Part shown: piece after piece, positions 4,420 through 36,103 of the stretch
How positions within the stretch are numbered: position 1 is the first letter of the stretch
Layout: every line of letters starts with the position of its first letter
Source: Polyangiales bacterium
GTDB lineage: Bacteria > Myxococcota_A > Polyangia > Polyangiales > Polyangiaceae
Assembly: GCA_038231275.1 (NCBI GenBank)
Contig: JBBRLQ010000020.1
Span: 64,001-128,000, forward strand
DNA length: 64,000 nt
Direction of reading: 5' to 3'
Program-made: the position numbers and the translations under genes
Notes under the pieces: generated by a model
Database searches by the model: none
Told to the model about the DNA's origin: nothing
The model's input: only the letters and a program-made list of their open reading frames with translations

Positions 4420-4423
4420 GGGA

Positions 4424-5131: not shown

Positions 5132-5135
5132 CGCG

Positions 5136-6278
5136 TCAGCCCTTGAGGACGCTGGCGGCGATGACGATGCGCTGAATCTCGCTCGTTCCCTCGTAGATCT
5201 CGGTGATGCGCGCGTCGCGGTAGTGGCGCTCGACGGGGAACTCCGACGAGTAGCCGTAGCCGCCGTGGATCTGGATGGCCTTGTGCGCCACGCGCGTCGC
5301 CATCTCGCTCGCGAAGAGCTTCGCCTCGGCGGACTCCATCGTGTGGCGCGTCTTCTTGTCCTTCATCGTGGCCGCGCGCCACGTGAGGAGGCGCGCCGCG
5401 TCGAGCTCGGTCGCCATGTCGGAGAGCATGAACTGGATCGCCTGGTGCTGCGCGATCGGGACGCCGAAGCTCTTTCGCTCCTTTGCGTAGCCGACGCTGG
5501 TGCCGAGCGCCGCCTTCGCGATGCCGAGCGCTTGGCTCGCAATGCCGATGCGCCCGCCGTCGAGCGTCGCCATCGCGACCTTGAAGCCTTCACCCACGTT
5601 GCCGACCACCGCGCTCTCGGGGAGCTCGCAGCCCTCGAAGAACACCGTGCACGAGTGCGCGGCGTGGATTCCCAGCTTGTGGTCGCGCGGGTTCTGCGTG
5701 AAGCCCGGCGTGCCCTTGGGAATGAGGAAGGCGGTGTGCTTGATCTTCGGTCCCGAGCGATCGGTGACGGCGAACAGCAGGATGTAGTCGGCGTGGGGGC
5801 CGTTGGTGATCCAGTTCTTGGCGCCGTTGATGACCCAACCGCCGCTCGTCTTCTCGGCGCTCGTGGCCATCGTCTGGGCGTCGGAGCCGCTCATCGGCTC
5901 GGTGAGGCCGAAACAGCCGAGCTTCTTTCCGCTCGCGCACTCGGTGAGCGCCTCCTTCTTCTGCGCGTCGGTGCCGAACTTGAGGAGGGGGTCGCAGAAG
6001 AGCGAGTTGTTGACGCTCATGATGACGCCGCATGAGGCGCACGCGGCGCTGATCTCCTCCATCGCGAGGGCGTAGGAGAGCGTGTCCATCCCGGCGCCGC
6101 CGTACTCGGTGGGCACGGCCATTCCGAGGAAGCCGAGCTCCCCCATCTGCTTCACGATTTCGGCGGGCCAGCGGCCGTTCTTGTCGAGCTCGGCGGCCTT
6201 GGGCGCGACCTCGCGGGCCGCGAAATCACGGGCGGTCTGCTGGATGAGGCGCTGCTCCTCGGTGAAGTCGAAGTCCAT
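5136..6278 (-). CDS. acyl-CoA dehydrogenase (short-chain/butyryl-CoA type)
   Basis: FGLTEPMSGSD, GAKNWITNG, LDGGRIGI, QIHGGYGY, IYEGTSEIQR. Confidence 0.97.
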   Translation of the reverse strand: MDFDFTEEQRLIQQTARDFAAREVAPKAAELDKNGRWPAEIVKQMGELGFLGMAVPTEYGGAGMDTLSYALAMEEISAACASCGVIMSVNNSLFCDPLLKFGTDAQKKEALTECASGKKLGCFGLTEPMSGSDAQTMATSAEKTSGGWVINGAKNWITNGPHADYILLFAVTDRSGPKIKHTAFLIPKGTPGFTQNPRDHKLGIHAAHSCTVFFEGCELPESAVVGNVGEGFKVAMATLDGGRIGIASQALGIAKAALGTSVGYAKERKSFGVPIAQHQAIQFMLSDMATELDAARLLTWRAATMKDKKTRHTMESAEAKLFASEMATRVAHKAIQIHGGYGYSSEFPVERHYRDARITEIYEGTSEIQRIVIAASVLKG

Positions 6279-20415: not shown

Positions 20416-21345
20416 TCACGGGCACGTGCCGACGACCCTGCCCATCCACGTCATCCCAGTGAACGGCCCTTCCCATTTCCCGCCGGGCGCGCCCGTGTAC
20501 TCGCGCACGTTGACGCCCTTCTGCGATATCGAGCAGGACATCGATCCGAACGCGCCGGGGGCTTGGTACATGAAGTACTTGTGCTGCGCGACGAGCCGCA
20601 GCGGCGGGAAGATCTCCGCGCCGCGCCAGGTTTGCGTCGCGCTCGCGCCGTCGAGATCGCCCTGGAAGAGCACGGCCCCGGGCTTGTCGCACGCGGCGTC
20701 GCTGTCGAGGATCGCGACCTTGCCCGGCGTCGTGAAGAGCTCGATGCGCGACGCCGCGACGTCGATTTGCGGAACGTACTCGAATGCCGCGCCGCTCCCG
20801 CCGCAGTTGGTCGCGGGAGGCGAGGTGATGTTCACGCCTTCGCCGCACGCGCCGTAGGAGCTCGTCGCTTGAGGAGACGGATCGCCGGTAAAGGAGCAGG
20901 AGCCCGCGTTGACGATGCACGCGTTCGTGACGTGCCATCGGCCCCCGCCGCCAGCGATCGCCTGGCAGACCGCGGTGCCCACGCCGTTCAGACAAGGAAA
21001 CGTACGACCCTCGCCGATGCGGCTGGGGTTGCTAGGCCCACAGCATCCCCCGCCGCCAGTGCCGCACGTCGCGCCCTCGACCGGATCGGGCTCGGGACCG
21101 CCATAGCAACCAGGCGCCGCGCAGGACCACGTCCCTGATCGGCACGAGCAGAACGAGCACCCGTACGTACACTGGAGCCCCTCGGCGGAGCAACCTCCGG
21201 CCGCCGGGGTCGCGGGGCAGCCGGCGGAGTTGCCGTCGGAGCCGCCGTCCGCCGCGTCGCTCCCGACGCCGACGACCGAGCCACCGCACGACGCCAAAAC
21301 CGGGAGGAGCAGCGGCGCAGAGAAGAGGAGGGCCAGGAGGCGCAT
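20416..21345 (-). CDS. Cys-rich lipoprotein, hypothetical
   Basis: LASC lipobox; CP...C...G..CTY...C.C...W.C module. Confidence 0.75.
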   Translation of the reverse strand: MRLLALLFSAPLLLPVLASCGGSVVGVGSDAADGGSDGNSAGCPATPAAGGCSAEGLQCTYGCSFCSCRSGTWSCAAPGCYGGPEPDPVEGATCGTGGGGCCGPSNPSRIGEGRTFPCLNGVGTAVCQAIAGGGGRWHVTNACIVNAGSCSFTGDPSPQATSSYGACGEGVNITSPPATNCGGSGAAFEYVPQIDVAASRIELFTTPGKVAILDSDAACDKPGAVLFQGDLDGASATQTWRGAEIFPPLRLVAQHKYFMYQAPGAFGSMSCSISQKGVNVREYTGAPGGKWEGPFTGMTWMGRVVGTCP

Positions 21346-21458
21346 GCCGCTCCCAAGGGCAAGCGCCGTTCCAGCAGTGTTCTAGCCGCGATCAGCCTGC
21401 TTATTCGCTATTTTGCGTCGTCAGCGCTGTGTCGACGTGTGCCGGGGCGGCTCTGCGG

Positions 21459-22340
21459 TCAGGCCGCGCGCTTCTCGGGCATCGGCGCACGCGCGAGGTG
21501 AACGTCCATCTGCGGGAACGCGATCACGATCCTCTTCTCGCGGAACGCGCGCAGGATGCTCTCGCGAAGCATCGAGCAGTGTCGTCGATGGCCCCACGGA
21601 TCGTGCATCCAGACCGAGACCTCGTAGACGAGCGCGGAGTCGGCGAAGGCGTTCAAGAGCACCAGCGGCGCGTACTCGAGATCGCCCCCTTTGTGCGTCT
21701 TCGCGACCTCTTCGAGGGTCGCGCGGACGAGGGCGGGATCCGAGTCGTAGGCGACGCCGACCGAGACGGCGACGCGGATGAGCGAGTCGTGCAGCGTGAG
21801 GTTTTTGATTGGCTGCTGCACGAGCACGCCGTTGGGGACGAGGATGTCCTCCTCGAAGAGCGTGCGTACTCGGGTCGCCCGGATGCCGAGGTTCATCACG
21901 CGGCAATACTGGCCGTCGATCTCGATGATGTCGTCGATCTTGATCGACTGCTCGACGAGCAAAATGATGCCCGACACGAAGTTCACGGCGACGCCCTGGA
22001 GCGCGAGGCCGATGCCCACGGCGAAGACGGCGGTGGCGGCGATGACGGCGCGAAGATCGATGCCGGCGGTCTCGAGGGCGACGATGACGGCGACGACCAT
22101 GAGGACGTAGCCGATGAGGCGCTCGATCGAGCGCATGCGACGCCCCTCGGCGATCCCGCGTCGTACGAGCGCGCGGTGCATGACGTACCGGAGGACGCGC
22201 GACGCGCCGAACGCGCAGGCGAGGATGAGTCCGATCGCCAGGAGCGTCGCGGGCGTGACCGGACGACCACCCAGCTCGAAGAGCCTGAACCCAAGGACTT
22301 CCCACACCATGCCCTTCACGATCGGGATCGTCGCACCCAT
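21459..22340 (-). CDS. mscS: small-conductance mechanosensitive channel
   Basis: GIGLALQ...NFVSGIILL, IRATRVRT, VGVAYDSD, IAFPQMDVHL. Confidence 0.92.
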   Translation of the reverse strand: MGATIPIVKGMVWEVLGFRLFELGGRPVTPATLLAIGLILACAFGASRVLRYVMHRALVRRGIAEGRRMRSIERLIGYVLMVVAVIVALETAGIDLRAVIAATAVFAVGIGLALQGVAVNFVSGIILLVEQSIKIDDIIEIDGQYCRVMNLGIRATRVRTLFEEDILVPNGVLVQQPIKNLTLHDSLIRVAVSVGVAYDSDPALVRATLEEVAKTHKGGDLEYAPLVLLNAFADSALVYEVSVWMHDPWGHRRHCSMLRESILRAFREKRIVIAFPQMDVHLARAPMPEKRAA

Positions 22341-22424
22341 GGGCGGCGCGGCTCAAATTCCTGGAGATCCGACGCCCACGCACGCCCCTCGCTTGGGGCC
22401 GCTGGGCACGATATAAACGCGCAC

Positions 22425-23372
22425 ATGGCGCGCAGGCCCGTAGCGATCATCGGTGGAGGCTCATGGGGGCTGGCGCTCGCGGCTGCGGCGTCGCGCACGG
22501 GGGAGACGATGCTCCACTCGCGCCGGGCGCTCAACGGCAGCCTCCCCAAGGGCGTGACGCAGGCCCGGGATTTTCGGGAGATCGGCAAGGAGGCGCGCAC
22601 CATCCTGCTCGCCGTGCCGTCCGAGATCGCGCGCGTCGTGCTCCGCGAGCTCGGCGATCACCTCGACGGGCGTCACTTCGTCGTCCATGGCGTCCGCGGC
22701 CTCGCCGGCAACTCCATGACGCGAATCAGCGAGGTCGTCCGCGAAGAGACCCCGGTTCGCCGCGTCGGCGCGGTCGGCGGCCCTGCGCTCGCGGAGGATC
22801 TGCTCGCCGGACGGCCGAGCGTGATGGTCTGCGGCTCGCATTTCCCCGAGGTGAGCACGGCGCTCCGCGAGGCGCTGGGCTGCAACACGCTGCGCCTCTA
22901 CACGACCGACGATCTCGTCGGGCTCGAGTGGGCGAGCGCGCTCGTGGGCTGCCTCGCGATCGGCGTCGGCTACGCGCAGGCGCTGGGCCTGAGCCCGGGG
23001 CTCGTCGCCGCGTACATCTCGCGATCGGTCACCGAGGCGTCGAAGATCGCGGCCGCGGCAGGGGGCGACGAGCGAACCCTCCTCGGGCTCGCCGGCTACG
23101 GCGACTTGCTCGCGTGCGCGGGGCAGACCGAGCGCCCCGAGGTCCTCGTCGGCCGTGCGCTCGCGCAGGGCACCCCGCTCGTCGAGGCGATGCGCGGGAT
23201 CAAGACGCGGATCGAGGCCGTCGACCTCATCCCGCGCGTCGCGGCGTTCGCGGAGTCGAGCAAGGTCAGCTGCCCGATCTTCCATTCGCTGCGCGACGGC
23301 GTGCTCGCCGCGAAGGCCACCGAGGACATCGTCCAGACGCTGATGACCGCGCCGATCGAAGATCGCGGCTGA
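22425..23372 (+). CDS. gpsA: NAD(P)H-dependent glycerol-3-phosphate dehydrogenase-like
   Basis: IIGGGSWGLALA, LAVPS, GGPALAE, DLVGLE, GLAGYGDL; catalytic-motif changes noted in findings. Confidence 0.8.
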   Translation: MARRPVAIIGGGSWGLALAAAASRTGETMLHSRRALNGSLPKGVTQARDFREIGKEARTILLAVPSEIARVVLRELGDHLDGRHFVVHGVRGLAGNSMTRISEVVREETPVRRVGAVGGPALAEDLLAGRPSVMVCGSHFPEVSTALREALGCNTLRLYTTDDLVGLEWASALVGCLAIGVGYAQALGLSPGLVAAYISRSVTEASKIAAAAGGDERTLLGLAGYGDLLACAGQTERPEVLVGRALAQGTPLVEAMRGIKTRIEAVDLIPRVAAFAESSKVSCPIFHSLRDGVLAAKATEDIVQTLMTAPIEDRG

Positions 23373-23395: not shown

Positions 23396-26300
23396 ATGCG
23401 TCCCGTCACGCTCCGCACGCGCATCCTCGTCCGCGAGCTCGCCAGCGGCGAGGTGCTGGCCATCCCGGTCTGCGATCCCGCGCACGCCAGCTTCGGCGGC
23501 GAAGAGGACGCGCTGCTCGAGCAGTCGATGTTCCTCTCCGAGCACCTCGCGCGCGCGAGGCCGGAGACCGTCGCGCGCTTCGCCATACCGGAGGGCACAC
23601 GTTTGCATATTACACGCGTCCTCGTCCCCCGCGAGGAGCTGCCGCACGCCGTCGCGGTCACCCAGCCGATCGAAATCCCGAGTGTCGTCATCCCGTCCAC
23701 CGCGCGCGCGAAGAGCGACGCATGGGTGGTGATCGTGCCGCTCGACTACACGTTCTTCGTCCCCGCGGGCGAGGACCTGGACGAGGCCGTGAAGAGCGAG
23801 GTGCTCCGCCTCGTCGCCGCGGAGGAGGCGGGCGCGACGCACTACCTCGGCCTCTTGCCGGGCGTTCACGATCGCCTCGAGCCGCTCGACGTGAGGATCG
23901 ATCGCTCGTCCGACGGACCGGCGGGGCGCGCGGCGTCCCATCGCAAGGCGATCGCGCAGCGCGAGAAGCGCAAGCACGCGGTGCTCGTCCTCGAGTCGGT
24001 CGCGACGCCGCTGCATCAAGACGAGGCGCGCGCGCGGCCGATGCTCGGACGCGACGCCGACGCCAAGCTCCTCGCGGGCATTCTGGGCGGCGACGAGCGG
24101 CAGAGCGTGGTCCTGGTCGGCGAGCCGAAGGTCGGCAAGACGGCGCTCTTTCGCGCGTGGCTCGCCGCCGAAGTGGAGGCCGGACGTCCGCGCCTCGTGT
24201 ACGCGACGAGCGGCGCGCAGCTCATCGCGGGAATGAGCGGCCTCGGGCAGTGGCAAGAGCGCGTTCGCCGCGTGATGGACGCCGCGCACACGCTCGACGC
24301 CATCCTCTACTTCGACGATCTCGCCGATCTCTTCAGCGAGCGGGCGCACGGGATCGATCTCGGCGGCGCGATGAAGCCGTGGTTGGAGGAGGGCAGAGTG
24401 CGCCTCGTCGGCGAGCTCGCCAAAGATCGCGCGGAGGTGGTCGAGAGCCGCCACGTCGGCTTCTTCTCGTGCACCAGCCGCATTCGCCTCGAGCCGATGT
24501 CTCCGGTGCAGGCCCTCGTGGCCCTCCGCGCGCACGCCGCGGCCGACGGCAAGCACGAGCCGCACGCCGTTCAGGTCGCCGACGACGCGCTCGTCGCGAT
24601 TTGCGATCTCGCCGAGCGGTACCTCCCCTACGAAGCGTTCCCCGGAAAGGCGGCGCGCTTGTACGACGATCTGCGCGCGAGCCAAGAGCTCGGGAGGAGC
24701 CGCGCAGAGGGTGCACCGGCGCCCCGACTCTCGGCCGGCGACGTGTTCGATTGGTTCAGCGTGCGCACCGGCGTGCCGCCGTTCCTCCTCCGCGACGACG
24801 CGGCGCTCCGGCAGGAGTGGATCGCCGCGCATTTCGATCGACGCTTGATCGGGCAAGATGACGCGAAGGCGCGCGTGCGAGGCACCATCGCCGTCGTGAA
24901 GGCGGGGCTCCAGCCCGCGGGAAAGCCGCTCGCGACGTTCCTCTTCGTGGGCCCCACCGGCGTCGGCAAGACGGAGCTCGCGCGCGCGACGGCGGAGCTG
25001 CTCTTCGGCCACGCCGATCGCCTGGTTCGCTTCGACATGAGCGAGTACACCGACCCGTGGGCGGCCGAGCGCCTGATCCGCGGCACCGAGCGCGGCGACG
25101 GTCTCCTCACGCGAAAAGTGCGCGAGCAGCCGTTCTCGGTCGTGCTCCTCGACGAGATCGAGAAGGCCCACCCCGCGGTGTTCGATCTGCTCCTCCAGGT
25201 GTGCGGCGAAGGGCGCCTCACCGACGGGCGCGGAAAGACCGCGTACTTTCACAACACGATCCTCATCATGACGAGCAACCTCGGCGCCGCGCACCGCAGA
25301 GGCGCGGTCGGCTTCGAGGGGACCGGCGCGTCCGACGACGGGTACTACGTGAAGGAGGTCGAGAAGACGTTCCGGCCGGAGATGGTCAACCGGATTGATC
25401 GCATCGTCGCGTTCCGGACCCTCACGCGCGACGAGATCCGCGCGGTCACGCGCCTCACGGTGGAGCGCGTGCGCACGCGGCGCGGGCTCGCCCAGGGCGC
25501 TTTGGAGCTCGTCGTCTCCGACGCCGCCCTCGCGCACCTCGCGGAGCGCGGCTTCAGCGACGCGTACGGCGCGCGGGCGCTGCGGAGGCACGTCGAGGAT
25601 CACCTCACCACCCCGGTCGCGCGCCTCCTCACGAGCCTGACCCACGGCGGCGGCCGCGACATCGTCGACGTGCGAACGGCCGACGAGCCCGAGTACGAAG
25701 GCACCTCGAACCTCGTCACGCGCGCGTCGTCGGGCGGCCTCGTCTTCTCGCTCCTCGGCAAGCCGCGCGGCCTCACGGCGCCGATGACCAGCGTCTGGGC
25801 CCTCTCCGAATTGCGGCGCGAGCTCCAGAAGTACATGCGCCTCGACCGCGTGACCGAGCTCAAGGCGCAGCTCGAGTTCGTGATCGCGCAGCTCAGCTAC
25901 GGGGAGCCGGGGAAGAAGAAGAAGGGGTCGGAGCTCGCGCGCGCCGGCTCGGAGGTCGGCCGCCTCTCCTCCGAGCACCACAAGCTCCACGAGGTGTGGT
26001 CGGCGCTCGAGGGCGCGTACACGGATCTCCAGAGCGCCGAGGAGCTGGGCTTCGCGGCCTTCTTCGCGGGCGAGCGCTTCGACGCGCTCCTCGAGGAGGC
26101 GCACGCGATCAAGGCGCGCTTCCGCGCGGGGCTCCTCCAGGCGCTCACGTGCCGCGATCCGAAGCGCTTCGGCGTGACGCTGCTCCTCCAGGAGCTCGAC
26201 GACGGCCGCGCGTTCGACGCCTGGCTCGCGCCGCTCCTCGACGCGTGCGACGCGCGAGGCTGGGAGCTGGAGCTTCACGTCGACGCGAACACCAAGGAGG

Positions 26301-26929
26301 ATCGCGCGGGGACCAAGTGGCCCGAAGCGCGCCGCTGGGGTCCGCCGCGAACCGCCAAGGCGTTCAAGGACGTGCTCGGGGATCGGGGTCGAACCTTCAA
26401 GAACGTGCTCCTCCGGGCGCGCGGGCCGAGCGTCGGCATCCTCCTGGGACTGGAGGGCGGCCTCCATCGCTTCCACGACGTGCACCCCGACGTCCGCCCC
26501 TGCCACATGCTCGCGATGCGCATCGCCTTTCGCGCGACGCTCAAGGACGACGACTGGCTCTCGCCGACGATCGCGCCGCCTCTACCCGCCGCCGCCGATC
26601 ACGCGCGCCGACAACAACCCACGCGCGAGGTGCTCGCCAACGAAGGGGTCGTCCACGTCTTCGCCAAGCGCGCGGTCCTCAAGATCCCGCTCGCCGACTA
26701 CTGGTCCCGCTTCGACGAGATCGCGCTCGAGCACCTGCTTCTCTTCGAGACGCGCGACGATCTCGATCGCGACGTGACCCTCGCCGCCATCTTCGAAGAC
26801 GAGTGGGACGACGTCACGGAGCTCGTTCGCCAAGGGCACCTCATCGAGGCGAACAAGCGGTACCGCGAACGCGCGGGAGTCGGGCTCAAGGAGGCGAAGG
26901 ACTACGTCGACTCGCTGAGGGGCAGCTGA
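23396..26929 (+). CDS. ClpA/B-type double AAA+ ATPase 1 with C-terminal RF2-like and bL12-CTD-like modules
   Basis: GEPKVGKT; GPTGVGKTE, FDMSEY, LLDEIEKAH, GRLTD, MTSNLG, YGARALRR. Confidence 0.9.
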   Translation: MRPVTLRTRILVRELASGEVLAIPVCDPAHASFGGEEDALLEQSMFLSEHLARARPETVARFAIPEGTRLHITRVLVPREELPHAVAVTQPIEIPSVVIPSTARAKSDAWVVIVPLDYTFFVPAGEDLDEAVKSEVLRLVAAEEAGATHYLGLLPGVHDRLEPLDVRIDRSSDGPAGRAASHRKAIAQREKRKHAVLVLESVATPLHQDEARARPMLGRDADAKLLAGILGGDERQSVVLVGEPKVGKTALFRAWLAAEVEAGRPRLVYATSGAQLIAGMSGLGQWQERVRRVMDAAHTLDAILYFDDLADLFSERAHGIDLGGAMKPWLEEGRVRLVGELAKDRAEVVESRHVGFFSCTSRIRLEPMSPVQALVALRAHAAADGKHEPHAVQVADDALVAICDLAERYLPYEAFPGKAARLYDDLRASQELGRSRAEGAPAPRLSAGDVFDWFSVRTGVPPFLLRDDAALRQEWIAAHFDRRLIGQDDAKARVRGTIAVVKAGLQPAGKPLATFLFVGPTGVGKTELARATAELLFGHADRLVRFDMSEYTDPWAAERLIRGTERGDGLLTRKVREQPFSVVLLDEIEKAHPAVFDLLLQVCGEGRLTDGRGKTAYFHNTILIMTSNLGAAHRRGAVGFEGTGASDDGYYVKEVEKTFRPEMVNRIDRIVAFRTLTRDEIRAVTRLTVERVRTRRGLAQGALELVVSDAALAHLAERGFSDAYGARALRRHVEDHLTTPVARLLTSLTHGGGRDIVDVRTADEPEYEGTSNLVTRASSGGLVFSLLGKPRGLTAPMTSVWALSELRRELQKYMRLDRVTELKAQLEFVIAQLSYGEPGKKKKGSELARAGSEVGRLSSEHHKLHEVWSALEGAYTDLQSAEELGFAAFFAGERFDALLEEAHAIKARFRAGLLQALTCRDPKRFGVTLLLQELDDGRAFDAWLAPLLDACDARGWELELHVDANTKEDRAGTKWPEARRWGPPRTAKAFKDVLGDRGRTFKNVLLRARGPSVGILLGLEGGLHRFHDVHPDVRPCHMLAMRIAFRATLKDDDWLSPTIAPPLPAAADHARRQQPTREVLANEGVVHVFAKRAVLKIPLADYWSRFDEIALEHLLLFETRDDLDRDVTLAAIFEDEWDDVTELVRQGHLIEANKRYRERAGVGLKEAKDYVDSLRGS

Positions 26930-26931
26930 CG

Positions 26932-29900
26932 ATGCACGTCACCGTCCCGGTCTATCAGAAGCGCGCAGGCCAGAACCTGGAGTGGATCACGCTCGGCCTC
27001 GGCACGCACACCAAGACGCGGGCCGGCACCAACGCGCAGAAAATCCAGGAGAAGCTCACCGACGATCTGCGCCGCGCCGCCGAGGGGGCTCCACCGCGCG
27101 ATCTCCCGTCGTTCCAGCTCAAACGCGGGACTCGCCTCGAGCGCGTGCGCGTCGAGCTCGTGTTGAAGAGCGAGGGACAGAAGCGGAAGCCCTCCGGTCT
27201 CGTCCCGGTGATCGTCGAGCCGCGCGAGGCCGGCGACGGCGCGCGCTTCGTCATCGCGTACCACCCGGCGCGTCAAAGCGAGTGGTTCCCCGTCCGCGAG
27301 GGACAGACGCTGGCCGAGCAAGCCAAGGCGTTCTTCCAAAAGGCGTGGGCGGGCCTCGACGACGAGGCGCTCGGCCTCCTCTGGTCGAACGGCCGCGATC
27401 TGCTGAAAATTCTAGCGTTCTCCTTTCGCCCGCGATCGCTGCTCGACGAGCTGCCCGACAAGAAGAAAGGCATCTGGGACGATCTCGACGCGGATCCGGC
27501 GCGGCAGAAGCAGAAGAAGGCGCCGGCCGGCATGCAGGTCTTGCCGCGGCTCGGCGTCGATCTCACCGCGCGCGCCGAGACTCGCCGCGACCAGGCCAGG
27601 CCGCGCCCGCCCTACCGCGAGCAGCTCCAGAGCCTCCTCTCTGCGGCGAAGAAGCAGTCGACGCTGCTGGTCGGCGCGCACGGGGTCGGGAAATCGACGC
27701 TGCTCGATCAATGGATCTTGGATCTGATGGAGGCGGAGGACTTCCCGTCGCACCGGAACCTCGACCGCGTGACCCACGTGTGGTCGCTGGGCGGCAAGCA
27801 GCTCATCGCCGGGATGTCGTATGTCGGCGATTGGGAGAAGCGCTGCGTCGATTTGCTCGAGGACGTACGCGGTCGCAAGGTGGTCCTCATCGTCCACGAT
27901 TTGCACCTTTTCGGGCAGATCGGCCGCGCGCGGGACAGCGATCGCGCGCTCGCCGATTTCTTCCGCGGGCCGCTCGCGCGCGGGGAGATCGTCCTCGCCG
28001 GCGAGTGCACGGCCGAGCAGCTGCGGCGCCTCGAGGAGGACGCGCCGGCCTTCGCGGCGCTTTTCGCGCGCGTCTTCGTCCGCGAGGCGACGAGCGAGGA
28101 GACCTTCCGCATGATGGTCGGCACTGCGCGGCGGCTCGAGATGGAGAGGAACGTCACGTTCGACGCGTGGGCCTTCCAGACGATCCTCGAGCTCGGCGCC
28201 GCGCTCTTCCCGTCGCACGCGCTGCCGGGAAAGGCCATCGACATGCTCGAGCGCCTCGCCCACGAGCACGACGCGGAAGAAGGCGACGATGCGACCGACA
28301 TCGACGGCGATCTGGTCACCGATCACTTGACCGAGCGCACCGGCCTCCCGTACCGCCTGATCTCTCCGGGCGGCACGCTGAAGCAGAGCGACGTCGAGGC
28401 AGCGCTCGCGCTGAAGGTCATGGGGCAGCCCGAGGCGGTCGCGGCCGCCGCCGATGTCGTGGTGCGCGTGCGCGCAGGGCTCACGGATCCGAAGCGTCCT
28501 TACGCCGTTCATCTGTTCACGGGGCCGACGGGCACCGGCAAGACCGAGCTGGCGAAGGCGCTCGCCGAGTACCTGTACGGCGGGCCGTCGCGCCTCCTCC
28601 GGCTCGACATGAGCGAGTTCGGCTCCGCAGACGCCGTCGCGCGTCTCATCGGCGACGCGTGGACGCCGGACGGTCTCCTCACGAGCGCGATCAAAGAGCA
28701 GCCGTTCAGCGTAGTGCTCCTCGACGAGATCGAGAAGGCGCATCCCGCGGTGCACAACCTCCTCCTCCAGCTCTTCGACGAGGGCCGCCTCACCGACGCG
28801 GCGGGCAACGCGGTGAGCTTCCTCCAGTCGGTCGTGGTGATGACGTCGAACCTCGGCGCACGCACGCGGCCGCCGATGGGGTTCACGGAGGCGCCCGATC
28901 AAGTGATGCTCGAGATCGCGCGCGCGGTGCGCGAGTTCTTCCCGCCGGAGCTGTGGAACCGCATCGATCGCGTCGTGCCGTTCCGGCCGCTCTCGCGCGA
29001 GGTCGCGGTCGACGTGGCGCAGAAGGAGCTCGCGAAGCTCCTCGGCCGACGCGGACTCGCCGATCGCAACATCTTCGTCCACGCCAACCGCGCCGTGGTC
29101 GAGCGGGTCGCCGCCGACGCGTTCCGCCAAGAGGACGGGGCGCGCTCGCTGAAGCGCTTCCTCGAGGATCGCATCGGGTCGCGCCTCAGCGAAGAGATCG
29201 CGAAGGCCCCCAACGCGGCGCTCCAGGTCGTTCGCCTCTTCGACGGTGAGGACGGCTTCGTCCTCGAGCACGAGCCGCTCGTGGAGGCCGAGCCGTGCGG
29301 AGATCGTTTCGCGCTCGAGCCGCTCCTCGAGCTGCCCTTGGCGGACCTCCAGGCGCGCCTCCCGGAGCTGGTGACGAGCCTCGACGAGATCGAGAAGAGC
29401 CCGCGTTTCCTCGCGATCGAGCAGCAAATCATACGTCTCCTCGCCGCCCGGCGCGAGGGACGGGTCGACGCCGGCGACACGATCTTCGATCTGGATTGGA
29501 CGCGCGCGAGCCTGAAGGCGTTCCGCGACAAGATCGAGCGCCTGAGCGTCGCGTCGCGCGATCTCGGATACGAAGAGCTCGAGGCGCGGCAGTTCGGGAC
29601 GCAAGAGGTCGAGGTCGGCGGCGCGCTCGTGCGCATGCGCGTCCTCTCACGCCTCGGCGAGCGAGACTCGGCGCGCGCCATCACGCGGCGTGAGCTCCTC
29701 GAGTGCTTCGCGCAGGTGCAGTTCCTCGCGCGGGCGCTGGGGAAGGTGCATGACCCCACGCAGCACGCCGTGAAGGTGGAGGTGCTGCCGATCGGGAGCG
29801 CGGCGTCGCTCGCGAAGTGGCTCGCGGCAGCCTACGCGGGAAAGTGGGGGCAGCTCGCCGGCTACGCGACGCTCGCGCGCGGGACGGCGCTCGAGGGAAC

Positions 29901-30342
29901 CGACAAGCGCCACCTCGCCGTCGCGCTCGAGGCGAAGCCGGACCTCATCGTGCTGCGCATCCAGGGCATGTGCGTGCGCGACTTCGCGGAGCTCGAGACC
30001 GGCACCCACGTCTGGCAAGGCGCGACGACGGCCCCGGAGCTGGTGCGCGTGCGCGTGCTCACCGACGACGGTCGCCCGCTCGCCGATCACGTCGAGGAGC
30101 ACCGGCGGCGGCGCGACGCGTTCGAGAAGGCCGCGATCGCCCCGGGGCGCGAGGCCGAGAACCCGTCGCGCCTCCTCCCGATCGCACGCACGATCCGCTT
30201 CGATCCGCCGCGCGCCGGCCTGGCCCCGCTCGCGCTCGAGGATTTCGCGATGGGGCACGGCGGGACGTTCCACGTGAAGACGATCGCCGAGGCGCTCGGC
30301 ACGCTGTGGCTCCTTCGCATGACGCGGGAGGCGCGCGCATGA
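26932..30342 (+). CDS. ClpA/B-type double AAA+ ATPase 2 with C-terminal RF-like module
   Basis: GAHGVGKS; GPTGTGKTE, LDMSEF, LLDEIEKAH, MTSNLG, GARSLKR. Confidence 0.9.
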   Translation: MHVTVPVYQKRAGQNLEWITLGLGTHTKTRAGTNAQKIQEKLTDDLRRAAEGAPPRDLPSFQLKRGTRLERVRVELVLKSEGQKRKPSGLVPVIVEPREAGDGARFVIAYHPARQSEWFPVREGQTLAEQAKAFFQKAWAGLDDEALGLLWSNGRDLLKILAFSFRPRSLLDELPDKKKGIWDDLDADPARQKQKKAPAGMQVLPRLGVDLTARAETRRDQARPRPPYREQLQSLLSAAKKQSTLLVGAHGVGKSTLLDQWILDLMEAEDFPSHRNLDRVTHVWSLGGKQLIAGMSYVGDWEKRCVDLLEDVRGRKVVLIVHDLHLFGQIGRARDSDRALADFFRGPLARGEIVLAGECTAEQLRRLEEDAPAFAALFARVFVREATSEETFRMMVGTARRLEMERNVTFDAWAFQTILELGAALFPSHALPGKAIDMLERLAHEHDAEEGDDATDIDGDLVTDHLTERTGLPYRLISPGGTLKQSDVEAALALKVMGQPEAVAAAADVVVRVRAGLTDPKRPYAVHLFTGPTGTGKTELAKALAEYLYGGPSRLLRLDMSEFGSADAVARLIGDAWTPDGLLTSAIKEQPFSVVLLDEIEKAHPAVHNLLLQLFDEGRLTDAAGNAVSFLQSVVVMTSNLGARTRPPMGFTEAPDQVMLEIARAVREFFPPELWNRIDRVVPFRPLSREVAVDVAQKELAKLLGRRGLADRNIFVHANRAVVERVAADAFRQEDGARSLKRFLEDRIGSRLSEEIAKAPNAALQVVRLFDGEDGFVLEHEPLVEAEPCGDRFALEPLLELPLADLQARLPELVTSLDEIEKSPRFLAIEQQIIRLLAARREGRVDAGDTIFDLDWTRASLKAFRDKIERLSVASRDLGYEELEARQFGTQEVEVGGALVRMRVLSRLGERDSARAITRRELLECFAQVQFLARALGKVHDPTQHAVKVEVLPIGSAASLAKWLAAAYAGKWGQLAGYATLARGTALEGTDKRHLAVALEAKPDLIVLRIQGMCVRDFAELETGTHVWQGATTAPELVRVRVLTDDGRPLADHVEEHRRRRDAFEKAAIAPGREAENPSRLLPIARTIRFDPPRAGLAPLALEDFAMGHGGTFHVKTIAEALGTLWLLRMTREARA

Positions 30343-32618
30343 GCAAGAAGAGCCTTCGCGTGTATTTCGTCGACCACGGCGTCGAGAAGAAGTCCGGCAT
30401 GCTCCTCCGCGTGTGGGACAACTTCTTCGACCGCCCGCCGCCCGCCGCGTTCGGCGCGAGCGAAGCCGACATCCTGGAGCAGCTGGAGCAGCAGCTCGCC
30501 GAGCTCGAGGCAGAGACCGCGGGCGAGCTCGAGCGCTACCTGTGGGACGAGACCTTCGCGACGCGCGAGGTGCGCATCGTCGTGCACCCGCGCTCCTCGA
30601 TCAAGAAGCGCGCAGTCATCGGGAAGAAGGAGATCCCGATGACGCTGACGTATGCATACTGCAAGCTCCCGGGCGGAGGCTTCCGCGTGATGGTGCCGCG
30701 CTTCGGCGGGTGGTTCATCCTCGAGGATCTCGCGCTGGCCCCCGAGGTGCTGCGCCACGCGGTGTCGAGCTGGCTGCTCGGCGAGAACCCGCGCTGGGTC
30801 TACGACTTCCGTCACGAAGGCGAGGAGGTCGTTCGCGAGTGGGCGCCGGCGATCTTGAAGCGGACGCCACCGCGCGCGTCCACCGAGGCCGCGGGCGACG
30901 CGATGCCGACGACCGCGCAGGTCGCCGAAGAGCTCGTCGAGCGCGCGGCGAAGGGGAAGCTGCCGATGCCGGTCGGCGCGTCCCCGGAGCTCGCGCGCGC
31001 GACCAGCGATCTCGCGAAGCTGCCGCCGACGTCGATCCTCCTCGTGGGCCCCAGCGGCGTCGGCAAGACGGCGTGGGTGCGCCGCGCCGCGCATCTGTTC
31101 GTGACCTGGCGACGGCAGCCGAACAAGAAGGCGCCGCGCATCTGGGCGACGAGCGCGGACCGGATCATCGCGGGGATGGTCTACCTGGGCCAGTGGCAGG
31201 AGCGGTGCATCGCGCTGGTGCGCGAGCTGTCGCACGAGGGGGACTACCTCTACGTCGATCGCCTGGCGCCCCTCCTGCGGCCGCAGCCCGACGGCTCCAG
31301 CATCGCGGACTTCCTCGAGCCCGCGCTGGCGGCGGGCGAGCTCAGCCTCATTGCAGAGTGCACGGAATCGGAGCTCGAACGCATGCTCCGCGAGCGCCCG
31401 ACGCTGGTGGGTCGCTTCTCGCTCGTGCGCATCGCCGAACCGTCGCAAGAGGCGGTGCTGGAGCTCGTGGGCCTGTACGCGCAGAAGCGCGGCGGGACGG
31501 CGCTGCACGCGTCCAGCCTGAAGCGAATGGTTCGTCACCTCGCGTCGTTTCAGCGGTCGACCGCGTTTCCGGGAAAGGCGATTCGCTTCGTCGACTGGCT
31601 CGCGAAGGAAGGGGCGAACAAGACGCTCTATCCGCGCGACGTCTCCGAGGCCTTCTCGCGCTACTCGGGGCTCCCGCTGGAGCTGATCAGCGACGACTAC
31701 CCTGCCAGCGCCGAGGCCCTCGCCGGAGCGCTCAAGGCGCGCGTCGTCGGGCAGGACGAGGCGTGCGACGCGTGCGGACGAATGCTCGCGCGCTTCAAGG
31801 CGATGATGACCGATCCCGAGCGACCGACCGGGGCGCTGCTCTTCGTCGGCCCCACCGGCGTCGGAAAGACCGAGCTCGCCAAGCAGCTCGCGCGCACGAC
31901 GTTCGGCGACGCGAAGCGGATGATCCGCCTCGACATGAGCGAGTACATGCTGCGCGGCGCGGCGAATCGGCTGCTCGACACCTCCCCGGGCGTGCGGAGC
32001 CTCGCCGCGCAGGTGCACGAGGAGCCGCTCTCGCTCGTGCTGCTGGACGAGATCGAGAAGGCGCACCCCGAGGTGTTCGATCTTCTCCTCGGCGTGCTCG
32101 GCGAGGGGCGCATGACGGACTCGAGCGGGCGCCTCGTCGACTTTCGCGGGACGATCGTGATCATGACCTCGAACCTCGGCGTGACCGATCGCATGCCGGT
32201 CGGCTTCGGGGACGCGCTGCCCGGAGATTTCCTGCGCCACGTCCGCGCGCATTTTCGGCCGGAGCTGTGGAACCGCATCGACCACGTCTTGCCGTTCCGG
32301 CACCTCGCGAAGGAGGACGTCGCGCGCATCGTGGATCTCGAGATCGCGGCGCTCGGCGCGCGGACGGGGCTCGTGCGGCGCGCGGTGCGGCTCGAGGTGA
32401 GCGTCGCCGCGCGGGCATGGCTCGCCGAGCGCGGGTACCACCCGACCCGCGGCGCCCGTCCGCTCAAGCGGCTCATCGAGGAGCGCGTGATGACGCCGCT
32501 GGCCGCGCGCCTCGCCGCCGAGACGGCGCTGAAGGACGGCGTCGCGCGGGTCGTCTGCGAGGGCGAGGGCGAGAGCGGGGCGGCGCGCGGCCCCCTGATC
32601 ACCTTGACGTTGGGCTGA
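30339..32618 (+). CDS. ClpA/B-type double AAA+ ATPase 3 (no C-terminal extension)
   Basis: ATGA overlap; GPSGVGKT; GPTGVGKTE, LLDEIEKAH, GARPLKR. Confidence 0.9.
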   Translation: MSKKSLRVYFVDHGVEKKSGMLLRVWDNFFDRPPPAAFGASEADILEQLEQQLAELEAETAGELERYLWDETFATREVRIVVHPRSSIKKRAVIGKKEIPMTLTYAYCKLPGGGFRVMVPRFGGWFILEDLALAPEVLRHAVSSWLLGENPRWVYDFRHEGEEVVREWAPAILKRTPPRASTEAAGDAMPTTAQVAEELVERAAKGKLPMPVGASPELARATSDLAKLPPTSILLVGPSGVGKTAWVRRAAHLFVTWRRQPNKKAPRIWATSADRIIAGMVYLGQWQERCIALVRELSHEGDYLYVDRLAPLLRPQPDGSSIADFLEPALAAGELSLIAECTESELERMLRERPTLVGRFSLVRIAEPSQEAVLELVGLYAQKRGGTALHASSLKRMVRHLASFQRSTAFPGKAIRFVDWLAKEGANKTLYPRDVSEAFSRYSGLPLELISDDYPASAEALAGALKARVVGQDEACDACGRMLARFKAMMTDPERPTGALLFVGPTGVGKTELAKQLARTTFGDAKRMIRLDMSEYMLRGAANRLLDTSPGVRSLAAQVHEEPLSLVLLDEIEKAHPEVFDLLLGVLGEGRMTDSSGRLVDFRGTIVIMTSNLGVTDRMPVGFGDALPGDFLRHVRAHFRPELWNRIDHVLPFRHLAKEDVARIVDLEIAALGARTGLVRRAVRLEVSVAARAWLAERGYHPTRGARPLKRLIEERVMTPLAARLAAETALKDGVARVVCEGEGESGAARGPLITLTLG

Positions 32619-35600
32619 TGGATCCCCTCGACGACGCGCCCGACGGGCATTGGCTCGGATCTCTGGAACGGCACGATTTGCGGCGATTGCTGGGTGCGCG
32701 ATCGCTCGCCATCGCGCTCGCGAGCCACCTCCGGTACGCGTCCGCGCCGCGGCGCGAAGGGGCGGACGTCGTCGCGGCGGTGACCGACGACGGCGCGGCG
32801 ACCGACGAGACGTTCCAGGTCGCCCTGCGCATCGACGCCGACGGCGCGCTGGTCGGCAAATGCTCGCGGTGCGCGGCGCTGTTCGGCCCATGCGTGCACG
32901 TCGGCGTCGTCGCGGTGGACCTCGCGTGCTCGACGCCGATGCGCGAGGCGCTGCTCGCACGCGAAGGGACGAGCACGATCGCGGACGGAGCGCCGGCGCG
33001 GCGTCGAGGGCTGCACCTCGAGCTCCAGTTCGACGGCGCGCTCGGCGCGTGGGTGGCCCCGGCGGCGCAGCCGATGCCCCTCGAGCTCGCGGCGGGACCT
33101 GCGACGGTCGCCGAGACCGGCCCCGGACGCGCATACGGCGATCGACGCGACGCGCCGGGAGGTCCAACGCTCTCGATCCTCGTCCGCCCGCGCGGCGAGA
33201 AGCGGCTCCTCTCGGGCCGCGAGATCCAAGAGCTCTGCGCGACGGTCGGCAAGCTCCTCCCTCGCGATCGGCGCGTCCTCGAGCACGCGCGGGATCGCGG
33301 CAACAAGAAGGCGGTCTTCGCCGCCGGCGTCGAGGCGTCGTTGGCGCTCGAGGCGATGCGCCTGCACGGCGCGGTGATGACGACCGGGGGAAAGACGGTG
33401 CTTCGCTTCCGCGCGATGCCGGTGAGGCCGGTGCTGCGCCTCGGCCGCGACGCGCCCGATCTTCCACACGGCTTCGACGCCCTCTCGTCGTTCTGGGTCA
33501 CCGCCGACGGCGGCGCGTCGTTTCCGTTCGCGGAGACAACGCTGTTTCCAGGGCCGTTCCCGTACTTGTGGACGCGCGCCGGCGCGATTCACCCCGTGCC
33601 ACCCGACGTCGATCTGGACTTCGCGCGCCAGCTCGCGCGCGCGCCGATCCTGTTCGTGCCGCCCGGCCGCCTCGCCGACGCGGGCACGCAAATCCTCCGA
33701 GCGACGCGCGGGCGCGGGGTGTCGGTGCCATCGCACGAGGTCTTCGGGCTCCCGCCGCTCGAGCCGCCGCGTGTCGTCCTTCGCCTCGAAGGAGAGCCGC
33801 TCGCGGTGGTGGGGACGCTCACCGCGCACTACCGCGGGCGCGCGATCTCGCTCGTCCCTTCGGATCCGTCGGCGCCCGAAGATCGACGGGACCTCGACGC
33901 CGAGGCGCGCGCCGTCGCCCTGGTGGCCCACGTCGCCGACGCCGACGCGAGCGAGGAGCCGGTCTCCGCGCGCGGCGAGCAGGCGATCGCGTTCTGGCGC
34001 GATGGGCTCCCGCACATCCGATCGGCCTACGATCCGCGGATCGAGGTGGAGCTCACGCCGCGCCTCGCGGGCATCCGTGTCGGGGCGCCGCTGACCGGGC
34101 GCGTTCACGTGGTGCTCGAGGGTGACTGGCTCAAGACGCGCCTCGATTTTGCGGCCGGCGATTTGCCGGTGGAGCTCGATCGCGTTCGCACCGCGCTCGC
34201 GAACAAGCAGCGGTGGGTCGAGCTCGACGACGGGACGCTCAGCCGCATCGAGTCGCAGATCGAGTCTCTCGTCGACGAAGCCGGCGCCGTCATGGGCAAG
34301 GCAGCCGAGGCGCTCCTCCCCTTCCACCAGCTCGGGCGGCTCGAGCGATGGATCGACGCGAACGACGGGAGGATCGACGCGGCGACCGCAGCGCTGCGAA
34401 GGCGCCTGCGCGCGCTCTCGGTGGCGCCGGAGCCGCAGCTTCCACGCGGCCTCGAGGGAACCCTGCGGCCGTACCAACTTCACGGCCTGGCGTGGCTTCA
34501 GTTCCTCGAAGAGCTCGGCGCCGGCGGGATCCTGGCCGACGACATGGGGCTCGGAAAGACGATCACGACCCTCGCGTTCCTCCTTCGCCAAAAAGAGGCG
34601 CGCGGCGCGGCGCCGGCCCTCGTCGTGTGCCCCACGTCGGTGGCGACGAATTGGCTTCGCGAGGCCGCGCGCTTCACGCCGTCGCTCTCGCTCCTCCTCT
34701 TCCATGGCCCCTCGCGCGACGCGACCACCCTCGCAAAGGTCGACGTCGCGGTGACGACGTACGCGATCCTCCGCGCGGACATCGACGCGCTCGCGAAGAT
34801 CCCGTTTCGCACGGTGGTCCTGGACGAGGCGCAGAACATCAAGAACCCCGAGAGCGCCACGACGCGGGCGGCGGCGAAGCTCGCAGCGAAGACGCGCCTG
34901 GCGTTGTCGGGCACGCCGATGGAGAACCGCCTGCGCGAGCTCTGGTCGCTCGCGTCGTTCGCGAACCCTGGAATCCTCGGCGCGCCGCGCGCGTTCGAGA
35001 CGCGCTTCGAGCGACCGCTCACCACCGATCGCGCGGCGCCGGTGGCCGCCGAGCTCCGGGCGATCGTGCGTCCGTTCCTGCTGCGTCGAACGAAGGCCGA
35101 CGTCCTCACCGAGCTTCCGCCCAAGACCGAGATCGATCGCGTCGTCACGCTCACCACAGCGGACAAGCGCATGTACGACGCCCTCGCGCACACGCTCCGC
35201 GATGGCCTCACCGAGGACGTGCGCGCGCGCGGGCTGCGGGCGGCGTCTTTGTCCGTCTTCACCGCGCTCACGCGCTTGCGGCAAATGGCGTGCGATCCGC
35301 GGCTCGTGGACCCGAGCCTCGTCGCGGTGGCGAGCGCCAAGCGCGAGGCGTTCCTCGATCTCGTGCGCGAGCTCGTCGCGGAGGGGCGGCGCGCGCTGAT
35401 CTTCTCGCAGTTCGTGCAGCTCCTCACGCTGTGGCGCCGCGATCTCGACGAAGAGCGGATCCCGTACGCGTACCTCGACGGCGCGACGACCAAGCGCGAC
35501 GAGGTGGTCCGCCGCTTCCAGGAAGGGACCGCGCCGCTCTTCCTCATCTCGCTCAAGGCGGGCGGCGTCGGGCTGAACCTCACCGCGGCCGACACGGTCA

Positions 35601-36103
35601 TCCACTGCGATCCGTGGTGGAACCCCGCCGTCGAAGACCAGGCGACCGATCGCGCATACCGCATCGGGCAGGACAAGCCGGTCACCGTGGTCCGCCTCGT
35701 CGCGCGCGGCACGATCGAAGAGAAGATCCTGGCGCTGAAGGCCAAGAAGCGCGACCTCGTCGGCTCCTTCATCGGCGACGACGGAGGCGCCTTGGCCGGC
35801 ATCACAGAGGACGATCTGCGCGCGCTCCTCGGCGACGCGGAGCTCGCCGACGACGACGGCACCGGCGCGCCGGAGGACAAGACCGACGCCCTCGCGACGA
35901 TGACCGAGGTGCTCGACGAGGAGTACTACGCGCTCGTGAAGGAGGCGCGGAGGTGGCTCCTCGAGGTCGGGCGCTTCGAGAGCGCGCTCGCCGAGAAGCT
36001 CGACCTTCCCGAGTCCTTCGCCACCCGCCTGGCGCAAGGGCTCCCGTTTCCATGCTCCCGCGGCCTCGGCGATCGCCTCCGGGCCCGCCTTCGCGTCGCG
36101 TGA
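32618..36103 (+). CDS. SNF2-family helicase-like ATPase with N-terminal SWIM-like Zn finger
   Basis: TGATG overlap; C..C.....CVH; LRPYQ, LADDMGLGKT, LDEAQNIKN, SGTP, GLNLT, QATDRAYRIGQ. Confidence 0.93.
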   Translation: MDPLDDAPDGHWLGSLERHDLRRLLGARSLAIALASHLRYASAPRREGADVVAAVTDDGAATDETFQVALRIDADGALVGKCSRCAALFGPCVHVGVVAVDLACSTPMREALLAREGTSTIADGAPARRRGLHLELQFDGALGAWVAPAAQPMPLELAAGPATVAETGPGRAYGDRRDAPGGPTLSILVRPRGEKRLLSGREIQELCATVGKLLPRDRRVLEHARDRGNKKAVFAAGVEASLALEAMRLHGAVMTTGGKTVLRFRAMPVRPVLRLGRDAPDLPHGFDALSSFWVTADGGASFPFAETTLFPGPFPYLWTRAGAIHPVPPDVDLDFARQLARAPILFVPPGRLADAGTQILRATRGRGVSVPSHEVFGLPPLEPPRVVLRLEGEPLAVVGTLTAHYRGRAISLVPSDPSAPEDRRDLDAEARAVALVAHVADADASEEPVSARGEQAIAFWRDGLPHIRSAYDPRIEVELTPRLAGIRVGAPLTGRVHVVLEGDWLKTRLDFAAGDLPVELDRVRTALANKQRWVELDDGTLSRIESQIESLVDEAGAVMGKAAEALLPFHQLGRLERWIDANDGRIDAATAALRRRLRALSVAPEPQLPRGLEGTLRPYQLHGLAWLQFLEELGAGGILADDMGLGKTITTLAFLLRQKEARGAAPALVVCPTSVATNWLREAARFTPSLSLLLFHGPSRDATTLAKVDVAVTTYAILRADIDALAKIPFRTVVLDEAQNIKNPESATTRAAAKLAAKTRLALSGTPMENRLRELWSLASFANPGILGAPRAFETRFERPLTTDRAAPVAAELRAIVRPFLLRRTKADVLTELPPKTEIDRVVTLTTADKRMYDALAHTLRDGLTEDVRARGLRAASLSVFTALTRLRQMACDPRLVDPSLVAVASAKREAFLDLVRELVAEGRRALIFSQFVQLLTLWRRDLDEERIPYAYLDGATTKRDEVVRRFQEGTAPLFLISLKAGGVGLNLTAADTVIHCDPWWNPAVEDQATDRAYRIGQDKPVTVVRLVARGTIEEKILALKAKKRDLVGSFIGDDGGALAGITEDDLRALLGDAELADDDGTGAPEDKTDALATMTEVLDEEYYALVKEARRWLLEVGRFESALAEKLDLPESFATRLAQGLPFPCSRGLGDRLRARLRVA

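Follow-up and report, generated by a model that had tools for sequence, protein, structure and literature searches.

Organization of the locus

A run of four ATPase genes, labelled A to D, occupies positions 23396-36103 of a 64,000-nucleotide (nt) stretch of DNA from a Polyangiales bacterium (contig JBBRLQ010000020.1; the whole stretch is referred to here as the window). All four genes lie on the + strand. The first three, referred to as the A-B-C trio, encode related Clp-type proteins and are the main subject of this work, while the fourth encodes a helicase of the SNF2 family. Lengths of the products are given in amino acids (aa).

Gene A, 23396-26929, + strand, 1177 aa: double-AAA+ Clp-type protein with a C-terminal tail
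Gene B, 26932-30342, + strand, 1136 aa: double-AAA+ Clp-type protein with a 372-aa tail
Gene C, 30339-32618, + strand, 759 aa: double-AAA+ Clp-type protein without a tail
Gene D, 32618-36103, + strand, 1161 aa: SNF2-family helicase

The genes follow one another closely. The stop codon of A (TGA, 26927-26929) is separated by a gap of 2 nt from the ATG of B at 26932, B and C share an ATGA (C starts at 30339 and B ends at 30342), and C and D overlap by 1 nt in a TGATG at 32618. An earlier note on this DNA had described four tightly coupled ATPase genes; they were confirmed as co-directional open reading frames (ORFs), and the coordinates and all three junctions were reproduced. An uninformative scan for promoters and terminators returned no promoter-like site and no plus-strand terminator between the genes. 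The G + C content of the window is approximately 70%. The genome (9.28 Mb in 164 contigs) contains the A-B-C trio once, and a database protein of 1177 aa is 100% identical to the product of A.

Clp architecture of the three proteins

The domains of the three Clp-type products are arranged as follows (residue numbers):

A: N-domain 1-215; degenerate D1; D2 (AAA_2 510-669, D2-small 676-747); release-factor-like module; L7/L12-like end
B: N-domain 1-225; degenerate D1; D2 (AAA_2 523-680, D2-small 687-759); 372-aa tail
C: N-domain 1-195; degenerate D1 with D-R in Walker B; D2 (AAA_2 495-649, D2-small 656-732)

An AAA_2 domain together with a ClpB_D2-small domain was identified by Pfam in each of A, B and C (E 1e-41, 6e-39 and 2e-41, respectively), and upstream of this D2 Pfam also detected a weaker P-loop module, D1, which aligns to the D1 of ClpB and ClpA. 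The class I Clp/Hsp100 layout, with two AAA+ modules of which the second consists of AAA_2 plus D2-small, was therefore found in all three proteins. Clp_N repeats were found in none of them (Pfam, E<=0.01). The alignment of C with ClpB (1qvr) falls into two blocks, one between C 181-421 and ClpB 142-388 and the other between C 432-734 and ClpB 523-832; ClpB residues 389-522 (approximately 135 residues) have no counterpart in C, where residues 421-432 span the gap, indicating that C has no M-domain, the part of ClpB to which the skipped segment corresponds. These results agree with the earlier description of A, B and C as double-AAA+ Clp proteins devoid of both Clp_N and the M-domain.

When scored against the NCBIfam models, A, B and C reached 312-340 bits for ClpB (cut-off 1232) and 303-325 bits for ClpA (cut-off 993). 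These scores place the three proteins in the superfamily and, being far below the cut-off in the case of ClpB and below it for ClpA, outside every named family. Their N-domains are mutually weakly similar by hhalign (A-B 72%, A-C 63%), and no signal was obtained for B-C. The structural model of the C N-domain has a predicted local distance difference test (pLDDT) value of 80 and no Foldseek match at E<=0.001; its best VIA rows are a HicB N-domain (Z 6.9) or dsRBD-like folds, with Z values of 6-7 that lie in the noise range of this tool. A profile search of the PDB with this domain yielded nothing meaningful, and the ESM Atlas gave no usable match. Each N-domain is a family-specific region of approximately 200 aa without a clear known fold, for which neither a known fold nor a new one is claimed.

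Conservation and linkage of the trio

Full-length relatives of A, 41-82% identical to it, occur in Sorangium, Chondromyces, Minicystis, Labilithrix, Pendulispora, Hyalangium and other Polyangiaceae/Myxococcales. A search with the C N-domain recovered 89 proteins, nearly all of 736-801 aa, and the named ones are all from Myxococcota. Linkage of the three genes was surveyed in 300 genomes drawn evenly from the phylum Myxococcota. The B tail matches 13 of these genomes, and the C N-domain profile matches 12, every one of which is among the 13 with the B tail. Approximately 20 kb were fetched around each of the 13 matches, and the domain pieces of A to D were mapped onto them by tblastn. Complete A-B-C arrays in the same order were found at nine of the 13 loci. 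Among the others, the A-B-C array of relative G175 lacks the last part of A and the first part of B, relative G201 has B-C up to the end of a contig with an A tail on another contig, and relative G120 gave weak matches only.

A total of 21 A/B and B/C junctions could be compared, and 18 of them overlap (by 4 nt in 16 cases, by 1 nt in one and by 8 nt in one); the remainder comprise one gap of 2 nt and two junctions without a start codon within 15 nt. The evidence from 13 loci, 21 junctions and 34 orthologues thus supports a conserved set of three Clp paralogues whose translation is coupled, and the neighbourhood survey found the homologues linked in A-B-C arrays rather than occurring singly without linkage.

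In a quick maximum-likelihood tree of the AAA+ cores, reported from the quick search only, A, B and C each form a single clade (approximate likelihood-ratio support, SH-aLRT, of 100, 100 and 99), and A, B and C together are split from the ClpA, ClpB, ClpV and two other Clp paralogues of the same genome (SH-aLRT 100). Identical species pairs recur within the A, B and C clades. This clade structure and the recurring pairs show that the triplication is old and that the three genes have travelled together. All three belong to one Clp/Hsp100 subfamily, so far recorded only in Myxococcota, within which they separated long ago as paralogues.

At the locus of relative G175 (L094, G175:C119, approximately 3900-5400), the A tail ends at about tail residue 259 and continues into the second half of the B AAA+ core, which represents either a deletion that fused A and B or an assembly collapse. 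In addition, a search with an A alignment had returned 79 contig loci; these proved to be ordinary ClpB/ClpC from many phyla, recognized through generic patterns such as LLDEIEKA, and were unusable for synteny.

Release-factor-like tails of A and B

The C-terminal regions of A and B were compared with class-I release factors (RFs) and ribosomal proteins, and three segments were delimited:

A residues 796-1125, 25781-26770, + strand: class-I release-factor-like module with RF domains 1, 2 and 4
B residues 940-1030, 29749-30021, + strand: segment that aligns with both the A tail and RF domain 2
A residues 1138-1177, 26807-26926, + strand: partial L7/L12 C-terminal-domain-like helical piece (GVGLKEAKDYV)

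In the PDB, a profile built from ten A tails matches RF2, with 12 distinct sequences at E 5e-5 to 7e-5 and tail positions 66-198 aligned to RF2 residues ~30-164. The AlphaFold2 model of the A tail (pLDDT 87, predicted template-modelling score 0.78) has 31 Foldseek matches in the PDB at E<=1e-3, the best at 4e-7, and all of the matches listed are RF1, RF2 or mtRF1 chains or termination complexes. By VIA, model residues 43-371 superimpose on residues 4-365 of RF2 (7oj0_8) with Z 13.8 and 263 aligned residues, and the body formed by domains 2 and 4 alone (9mtq_1w) gives Z 12.6 with a root-mean-square deviation of 3.0 Å over 152 residues; purely helical look-alikes score Z 9-12 and are confined to the domain-1 helices. 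Against an RF1/RF2 reference alignment taken from five myxobacterial genomes, hhalign placed the A tail at 94.9% (E 5e-8, 178 columns), reaching the shared E-x-G-x-H-R. A GLHRF motif lies at A aa 1022-1026. A conserved WPxxxRxWGPPR insertion (A aa 975-985), absent from RFs, is located inside RF domain 2.

Where RF domain 3 would sit, the A tail has a loop of only ~30-32 residues. None of the ten A tails contains the GGQ motif, and among the 12 B tails it is present only in that of relative locus L102, where it is not conserved; PF00472, the RF-1 domain, has no match in the tails. The A tail is thus modelled as a class-I release-factor fold that comprises domains 1, 2 and 4 and has no GGQ domain.

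In the B tail, 77 columns align to RF domain 2 (hhalign 64.7%, E 6e-5), and the A and B tails align with each other at 77% over ~90 columns. The nearest ESM-feature clusters of the B tail are PCRF clusters, and one of them combines ClpB_D2-small with PCRF (0.86), which is taken as a lead only. The B tail probably carries the same RF module as the A tail, with weaker signs of it. A complex prediction for the A tail with the B tail scored 0.00 and was counted neither for nor against their pairing. The proposal that the tails resemble translation factors is accordingly supported by profile, model and hhalign for A, where comparison domain by domain leads to RF1/RF2, and is only probable for B.

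A search of 1.84 billion representative proteins with the A-tail profile gave 244 matches at E<=1e-3. The 150 of these that were listed are either proteins of ~1,030-1,740 aa matched at their C-terminal end or shorter proteins, which were taken as fragments, and none of the 150 resembles a canonical RF. Beyond the RF module, PF00542 scores 14.9 bits on the A protein of the window (cut-off 25.9) and covers profile positions 17-36 of 67. Two of the ten A tails have an L7/L12-like end, and precomputed PF00542 annotations exist for 12 of the 120 homologues listed; by this measure the resemblance of the A end to L7/L12 is a partial, motif-level one. In the same genome, a second RF1-like gene was observed on a short contig (C130, 1583 bp), besides RF1 on C2 and RF2 on C41, and may be a paralogue or a contaminant of the bin (the contamination estimate for the genome is 3.3%).

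Motor motifs and the ClpP-type loop

The motifs of the two AAA+ modules were compared in 34 orthologues (10 A, 12 B and 12 C). In D1, Walker A G-K-[ST] is retained in 32 of the 34, with G-R in two B proteins, while the Walker-B D-E pair is found in none. It is replaced by DD, EE, ED or DN in A, by [DEHT]-D in B, and in C by D-R (eight proteins), D-H (two), D-A (one) or G-E (one). The arginine-finger pair (R-R) of D1 is likewise absent from all 34, and the D1 pore tyrosine is present in 0/10 A, 10/12 B and 12/12 C proteins. In D2, Walker A, the D-E of Walker B, sensor 1, the arginine finger and the GAR of sensor 2 are all intact in 34/34, but the GYVG pore loop occurs in 0/34. The loop is 4-6 residues shorter, and each paralogue has its own replacement: RG-T-x-R-x-D-G in A, GD-R-[WF]-x-P-E-G in B and G-R-G-V-x-S in C. 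The ClpA, ClpB, ClpV and 813-aa Clp of the same genome all have GYVG, D-E and R-R; GYVG is thus present in four of the five other Clp paralogues of this genome, and the fifth has GYVD. By these motifs, the D1 ring is degenerate in A, B and C, and D2 is active-looking with GYVG deleted.

A G-[FLI] tripeptide lies ~8 residues past the D2 sensor-1 TSNLG in A, B and C and is present in at least 32 of the 34 orthologues. In the proteins of the window it reads as follows:

A, AVGFEG, 25304-25321, + strand: x-G-F (VGF) at the position of the ClpP-docking loop
B, PMGFTE, 28873-28890, + strand: x-G-F (MGF) at the position of the ClpP-docking loop
C, PVGFGD, 32196-32213, + strand: x-G-F (VGF) at the position of the ClpP-docking loop

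The tripeptide aligns to the VGFG of ClpA from the same genome, and the position is empty in the ClpB, the ClpB-like protein and the ClpV of that genome. According to a published account, Clp ATPases engage the ClpP core through the IGF motif, which they need for docking and which is missing from ClpB (PMC7966870). A, B and C thus carry a docking-type tripeptide like that of ClpA, and may dock on ClpP. This tripeptide, the degenerate D1 ring and the loss of the D2 GYVG loop are not mentioned in the earlier note.

The genome encodes one canonical ClpP and one weaker ClpP-like protein, both distant from the trio. Its other Clp proteins are ClpA, ClpB, a second ClpB-like protein, TssH/ClpV and the further Clp of 813 aa. 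The last of these (contig C1:170592-173033) is canonical in D-E, R-R and GYVG and has an IGFG loop; it also has an N-terminal region of ~210 aa that is not Clp_N, no M-domain, and scores under all NCBIfam cut-offs.

The SNF2 gene and other neighbours

Gene D encodes a protein with SNF2-rel_dom (E 1.5e-67), Helicase_C and SNF2_assoc (Pfam), and its best NCBIfam model is the SCO1167/SCO6262 family, at 488 bits (cut-off 1200). The label SWIM that had been attached to it was not supported: Pfam SWIM (PF04434) was not matched by the whole protein at E<=0.01 or by residues 1-200 at E<=5, and residues 82-94 contain only a C-x2-C-x6-C-x-H motif.

Whether D belongs to the system had been left uncertain. 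The ATG of D overlaps the stop of C by 1 nt in this genome, which is the arrangement that a fourth component of the Clp machine might show. However, a D-like sequence was found in none of the 13 related loci, although at least 3.2 kb downstream of C was covered wherever C was present; in its place, the genes downstream of C encode VKOR-DsbA, a histidine kinase, Crp, an IF-2B family protein or an astacin. The membership of D is thus dropped. A fourth component is an explanation to which we give hardly any credence, and by its distribution D is an accidental neighbour in this genome, outside the conserved module.

The genes around the trio vary by lineage and encode UvrA-like proteins, an ABC ATPase, VKOR-DsbA, a histidine kinase, Crp, an IF-2B family protein, astacin, an Rce1-like protein and a transposase. 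No ORF of the window other than A, B and C is common to the related loci. Upstream of A, a gpsA-like gene for NAD(P)H glycerol-3-phosphate dehydrogenase (22431-23372, + strand) ends 23 nt before the A start; the long ORF at 21429-23372 resembles gpsA only from residue ~335 on, and the gpsA-A linkage is absent from the related loci. Two further ORFs, at 18297-20390 (+ strand, 697 aa) and 20416-21345 (- strand, 309 aa), have no match in Pfam, NCBIfam or PADLOC, in the case of Pfam even at E<=5. Two related loci of one family have a Y2-type transposase gene (L099:1244-2785 and L102:1597-3072) immediately upstream of the trio and in the opposite orientation. Another locus encodes, at L097:1714-3213, a protein of 499 aa with a pair of ABC_tran domains, on the strand of the trio and 233 nt upstream of it; this protein could be of the ABC-F type and is not conserved at other loci.

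A proposed mechanism and its alternatives

The conserved and coupled trio, together with tails that derive from a translation factor, makes a heteromeric, ribosome-directed machine reasonable as a hypothesis. We propose a probably heteromeric, possibly ClpP-coupled unfoldase that is brought to ribosomes by GGQ-less RF modules, a function that we regard as slightly short of an even proposition. A, B and C would assemble in one mixed hexamer. This is suggested by the fact that they co-occur in a fixed order with overlapping junctions, by the congruence of their trees and by pore loops that are specific to each subunit. The hexamer would be powered by the D2 ring, B and C would provide most of the grip on the substrate through their D1 pore tyrosines, and the x-G-F loops may dock the hexamer onto ClpP. 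The GGQ-less RF modules would act as targeting devices that bind the ribosome at the RF1/RF2 site (the A site and stalk region) without peptide release. Ribosomes that are stalled, damaged or idle would in this way receive the unfoldase, which could extract or degrade the nascent chain, a factor trapped there or one of the ribosome's own components. Such a system would reproduce in bacteria, in fused form, the Dom34-type logic of combining a catalytically dead release-factor paralogue with an ATPase. Its most specific form, an A2B2C2-like heterohexamer that plugs its RF modules into the A site and extracts, and via ClpP degrades, a nascent chain, ribosomal component or trapped factor, is unlikely in our estimation.

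Several observations weigh against this proposal. The RF-like tails sit on the C-terminal (D2) face, which in ClpA is the ClpP-docking and exit face; with the tails on this side, a ribosome-facing D1 entry and ClpP docking at D2 need to be reconciled. The D2 of A and C has no aromatic pore loop, which is unusual in a threading motor. The stretch after GLHRF, presumably the position where RF1/RF2 read the stop codon (PxT or SPF), varies among the A orthologues, and the decoding-site contacts may therefore be lost. Pfam PCRF matches only four of the ten A tails, and weakly; a PCRF search of five whole genomes (E<=0.1) recovers the canonical RF genes and not the tails, and the PDB profile search with the B tail gives only weak coiled-coil rows. 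The trio is present in approximately 4% of the sampled genomes of the phylum, scattered over six families, and such patchy occurrence indicates that it is not a core quality-control pathway. In relative G285, B and C lie on separate contigs, and an A tail was not found in this genome, which is 93% complete. No translation gene is conserved beside the trio at the 13 loci.

The main rival to a ribosome-directed machine is the reuse of the RF fold for a non-ribosomal job. The tails would then be exapted scaffolds that serve in regulation, in oligomerisation or in contacts with a partner other than the ribosome, and the trio would be a specialised ClpA-like unfoldase or protease without ribosome contact. 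This fits the loss of the GGQ domain, the lack of conservation in the presumed codon-reading stretch and the absence of conserved translation genes nearby, and the WPxxxRxWGPPR insertion, absent from RFs, could form a new binding site. On the other hand, the whole RF architecture (domains 1, 2 and 4) has been kept over ~330 residues with high model confidence and was apparently retained in two paralogues since an ancient split, and some A orthologues add an unrelated piece of ribosomal derivation, the L7/L12-like end. We consider exaptation unlikely, while treating it as a serious competitor. More doubtful is the suggestion that A, B and C are independent homohexamers with different substrate or adaptor specificities that merely share an operon. 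All three retain the full D2 catalytic set, including the trans-acting arginine finger, no complementary degeneration forces the subunits to mix, and B and C are found apart in one genome; these features are countered by strict co-occurrence (the 12 genomes with the C N-domain all have the B tail), by a fixed order and the 18 overlapping junctions out of 21, as is typical of stoichiometric partners, by the congruent A, B and C sub-trees, and by a conserved pore-loop signature specific to each paralogue. We therefore judge separate homohexamers to be improbable.

The earlier note had also raised an anti-phage response. In this form, the trio would be a conflict or defence system, directed against phages or translation-targeting toxins, that uses the RF mimic as a sensor or decoy. 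The distribution is patchy within families (4/23 in f1, 2/18 in f2 and 1/26 in f15), a transposase lies upstream of the trio in two loci, and PADLOC returned DolB-like and PDC-M37B matches. These matches, however, are limited to the generic AAA_2 core (e.g., A 476-630), none of five scanned neighbouring proteins matches any PADLOC model, and a Dodola partner protein was not found among them. Each lineage has its own neighbours, of housekeeping or regulatory type, and species pairs within families recur in all three clades, pointing to vertical descent at least within families. The anti-phage role thus found no specific support, the PADLOC matches being to generic AAA_2 or SNF2 cores and the loci having no conserved defence-type neighbours, and we hold it to be very improbable.

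Novelty and significance of the A-B-C set

In the full-text literature searched (subscription journals and supplements being outside its scope), no description of a Clp-release-factor fusion or of a three-paralogue Clp was found. The architecture does not appear to have been characterised already, and the A-B-C Clp set is apparently undescribed. Clp/Hsp100 unfoldases are, in the textbook view, single-gene homohexamers, and we know of no described fusion of a class-I release factor lacking its catalytic domain to an AAA+ unfoldase. The term 'Clp' is absent from the main text of a survey of release-factor evolution (PMC6514570). A three-paralogue set with an inactive D1, no aromatic loop in D2 and a ClpP-docking motif would be a new build of Clp machine. 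If ribosome targeting is true, the trio would in addition represent a new branch of bacterial ribosome rescue and quality control, alongside tmRNA, ArfA/ArfB, RqcH and PrfH, and would provide a tractable fused model for the recruitment of an ATPase by a dead release factor.

Comparison with known systems

A, B and C resemble ClpA/ClpC in having two AAA+ modules, no M-domain, a D2 composed of AAA_2 and D2-small, and an x-G-F tripeptide. They differ from ClpA/ClpC in the absence of Clp_N, of the D1 Walker-B D-E and arginine fingers, and of the D2 GYVG; moreover, ClpA/ClpC is encoded by one gene, whereas here there are three obligatorily linked paralogues, two of which end in C-terminal modules of 370-420 aa. 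As for a ring of paralogous subunits, heterohexameric AAA+ machines such as Rpt1-6, Pex1/Pex6 and the m-AAA Yta10/12 combine subunit-specific pore loops with partly inactive rings, and to our knowledge no bacterial class-I Clp is a heterohexamer of paralogues. The likeness to ClpB/Hsp104 lies in the best sequence matches of A, B and C, which fall over D2; unlike ClpB/Hsp104, the three proteins have neither an M-domain nor Clp_N, and they have an x-G-F loop, which ClpB lacks (PMC7966870).

The A tail shares with RF1/RF2 the fold and order of domains 1, 2 and 4 and the E-x-G-x-H-R region. It differs from them in having no domain 3 and hence no GGQ, in the insertion in domain 2, and in being fused behind a Clp ATPase rather than free-standing. 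In the survey of release-factor evolution, Dom34 is described as catalytically inactive and Vms1 as interacting with Cdc48 (PMC6514570). The resemblance of the trio to Dom34/Pelota and to Vms1, an eRF1-like protein that binds the AAA+ protein Cdc48, is one of logic only, in that a module derived from an RF and devoid of the catalytic glutamine is paired with an ATPase. Those factors are separate proteins with the archaeo-eukaryotic eRF1 fold, which is unrelated, whereas here the bacterial RF1/RF2 fold is covalently fused to a Clp ring. If the proposed function is true, the A-B-C trio would be a fused bacterial machine for ribosome quality control or dismantling, a type of machine for which only separate factors, from eukaryotes and archaea, have been known.

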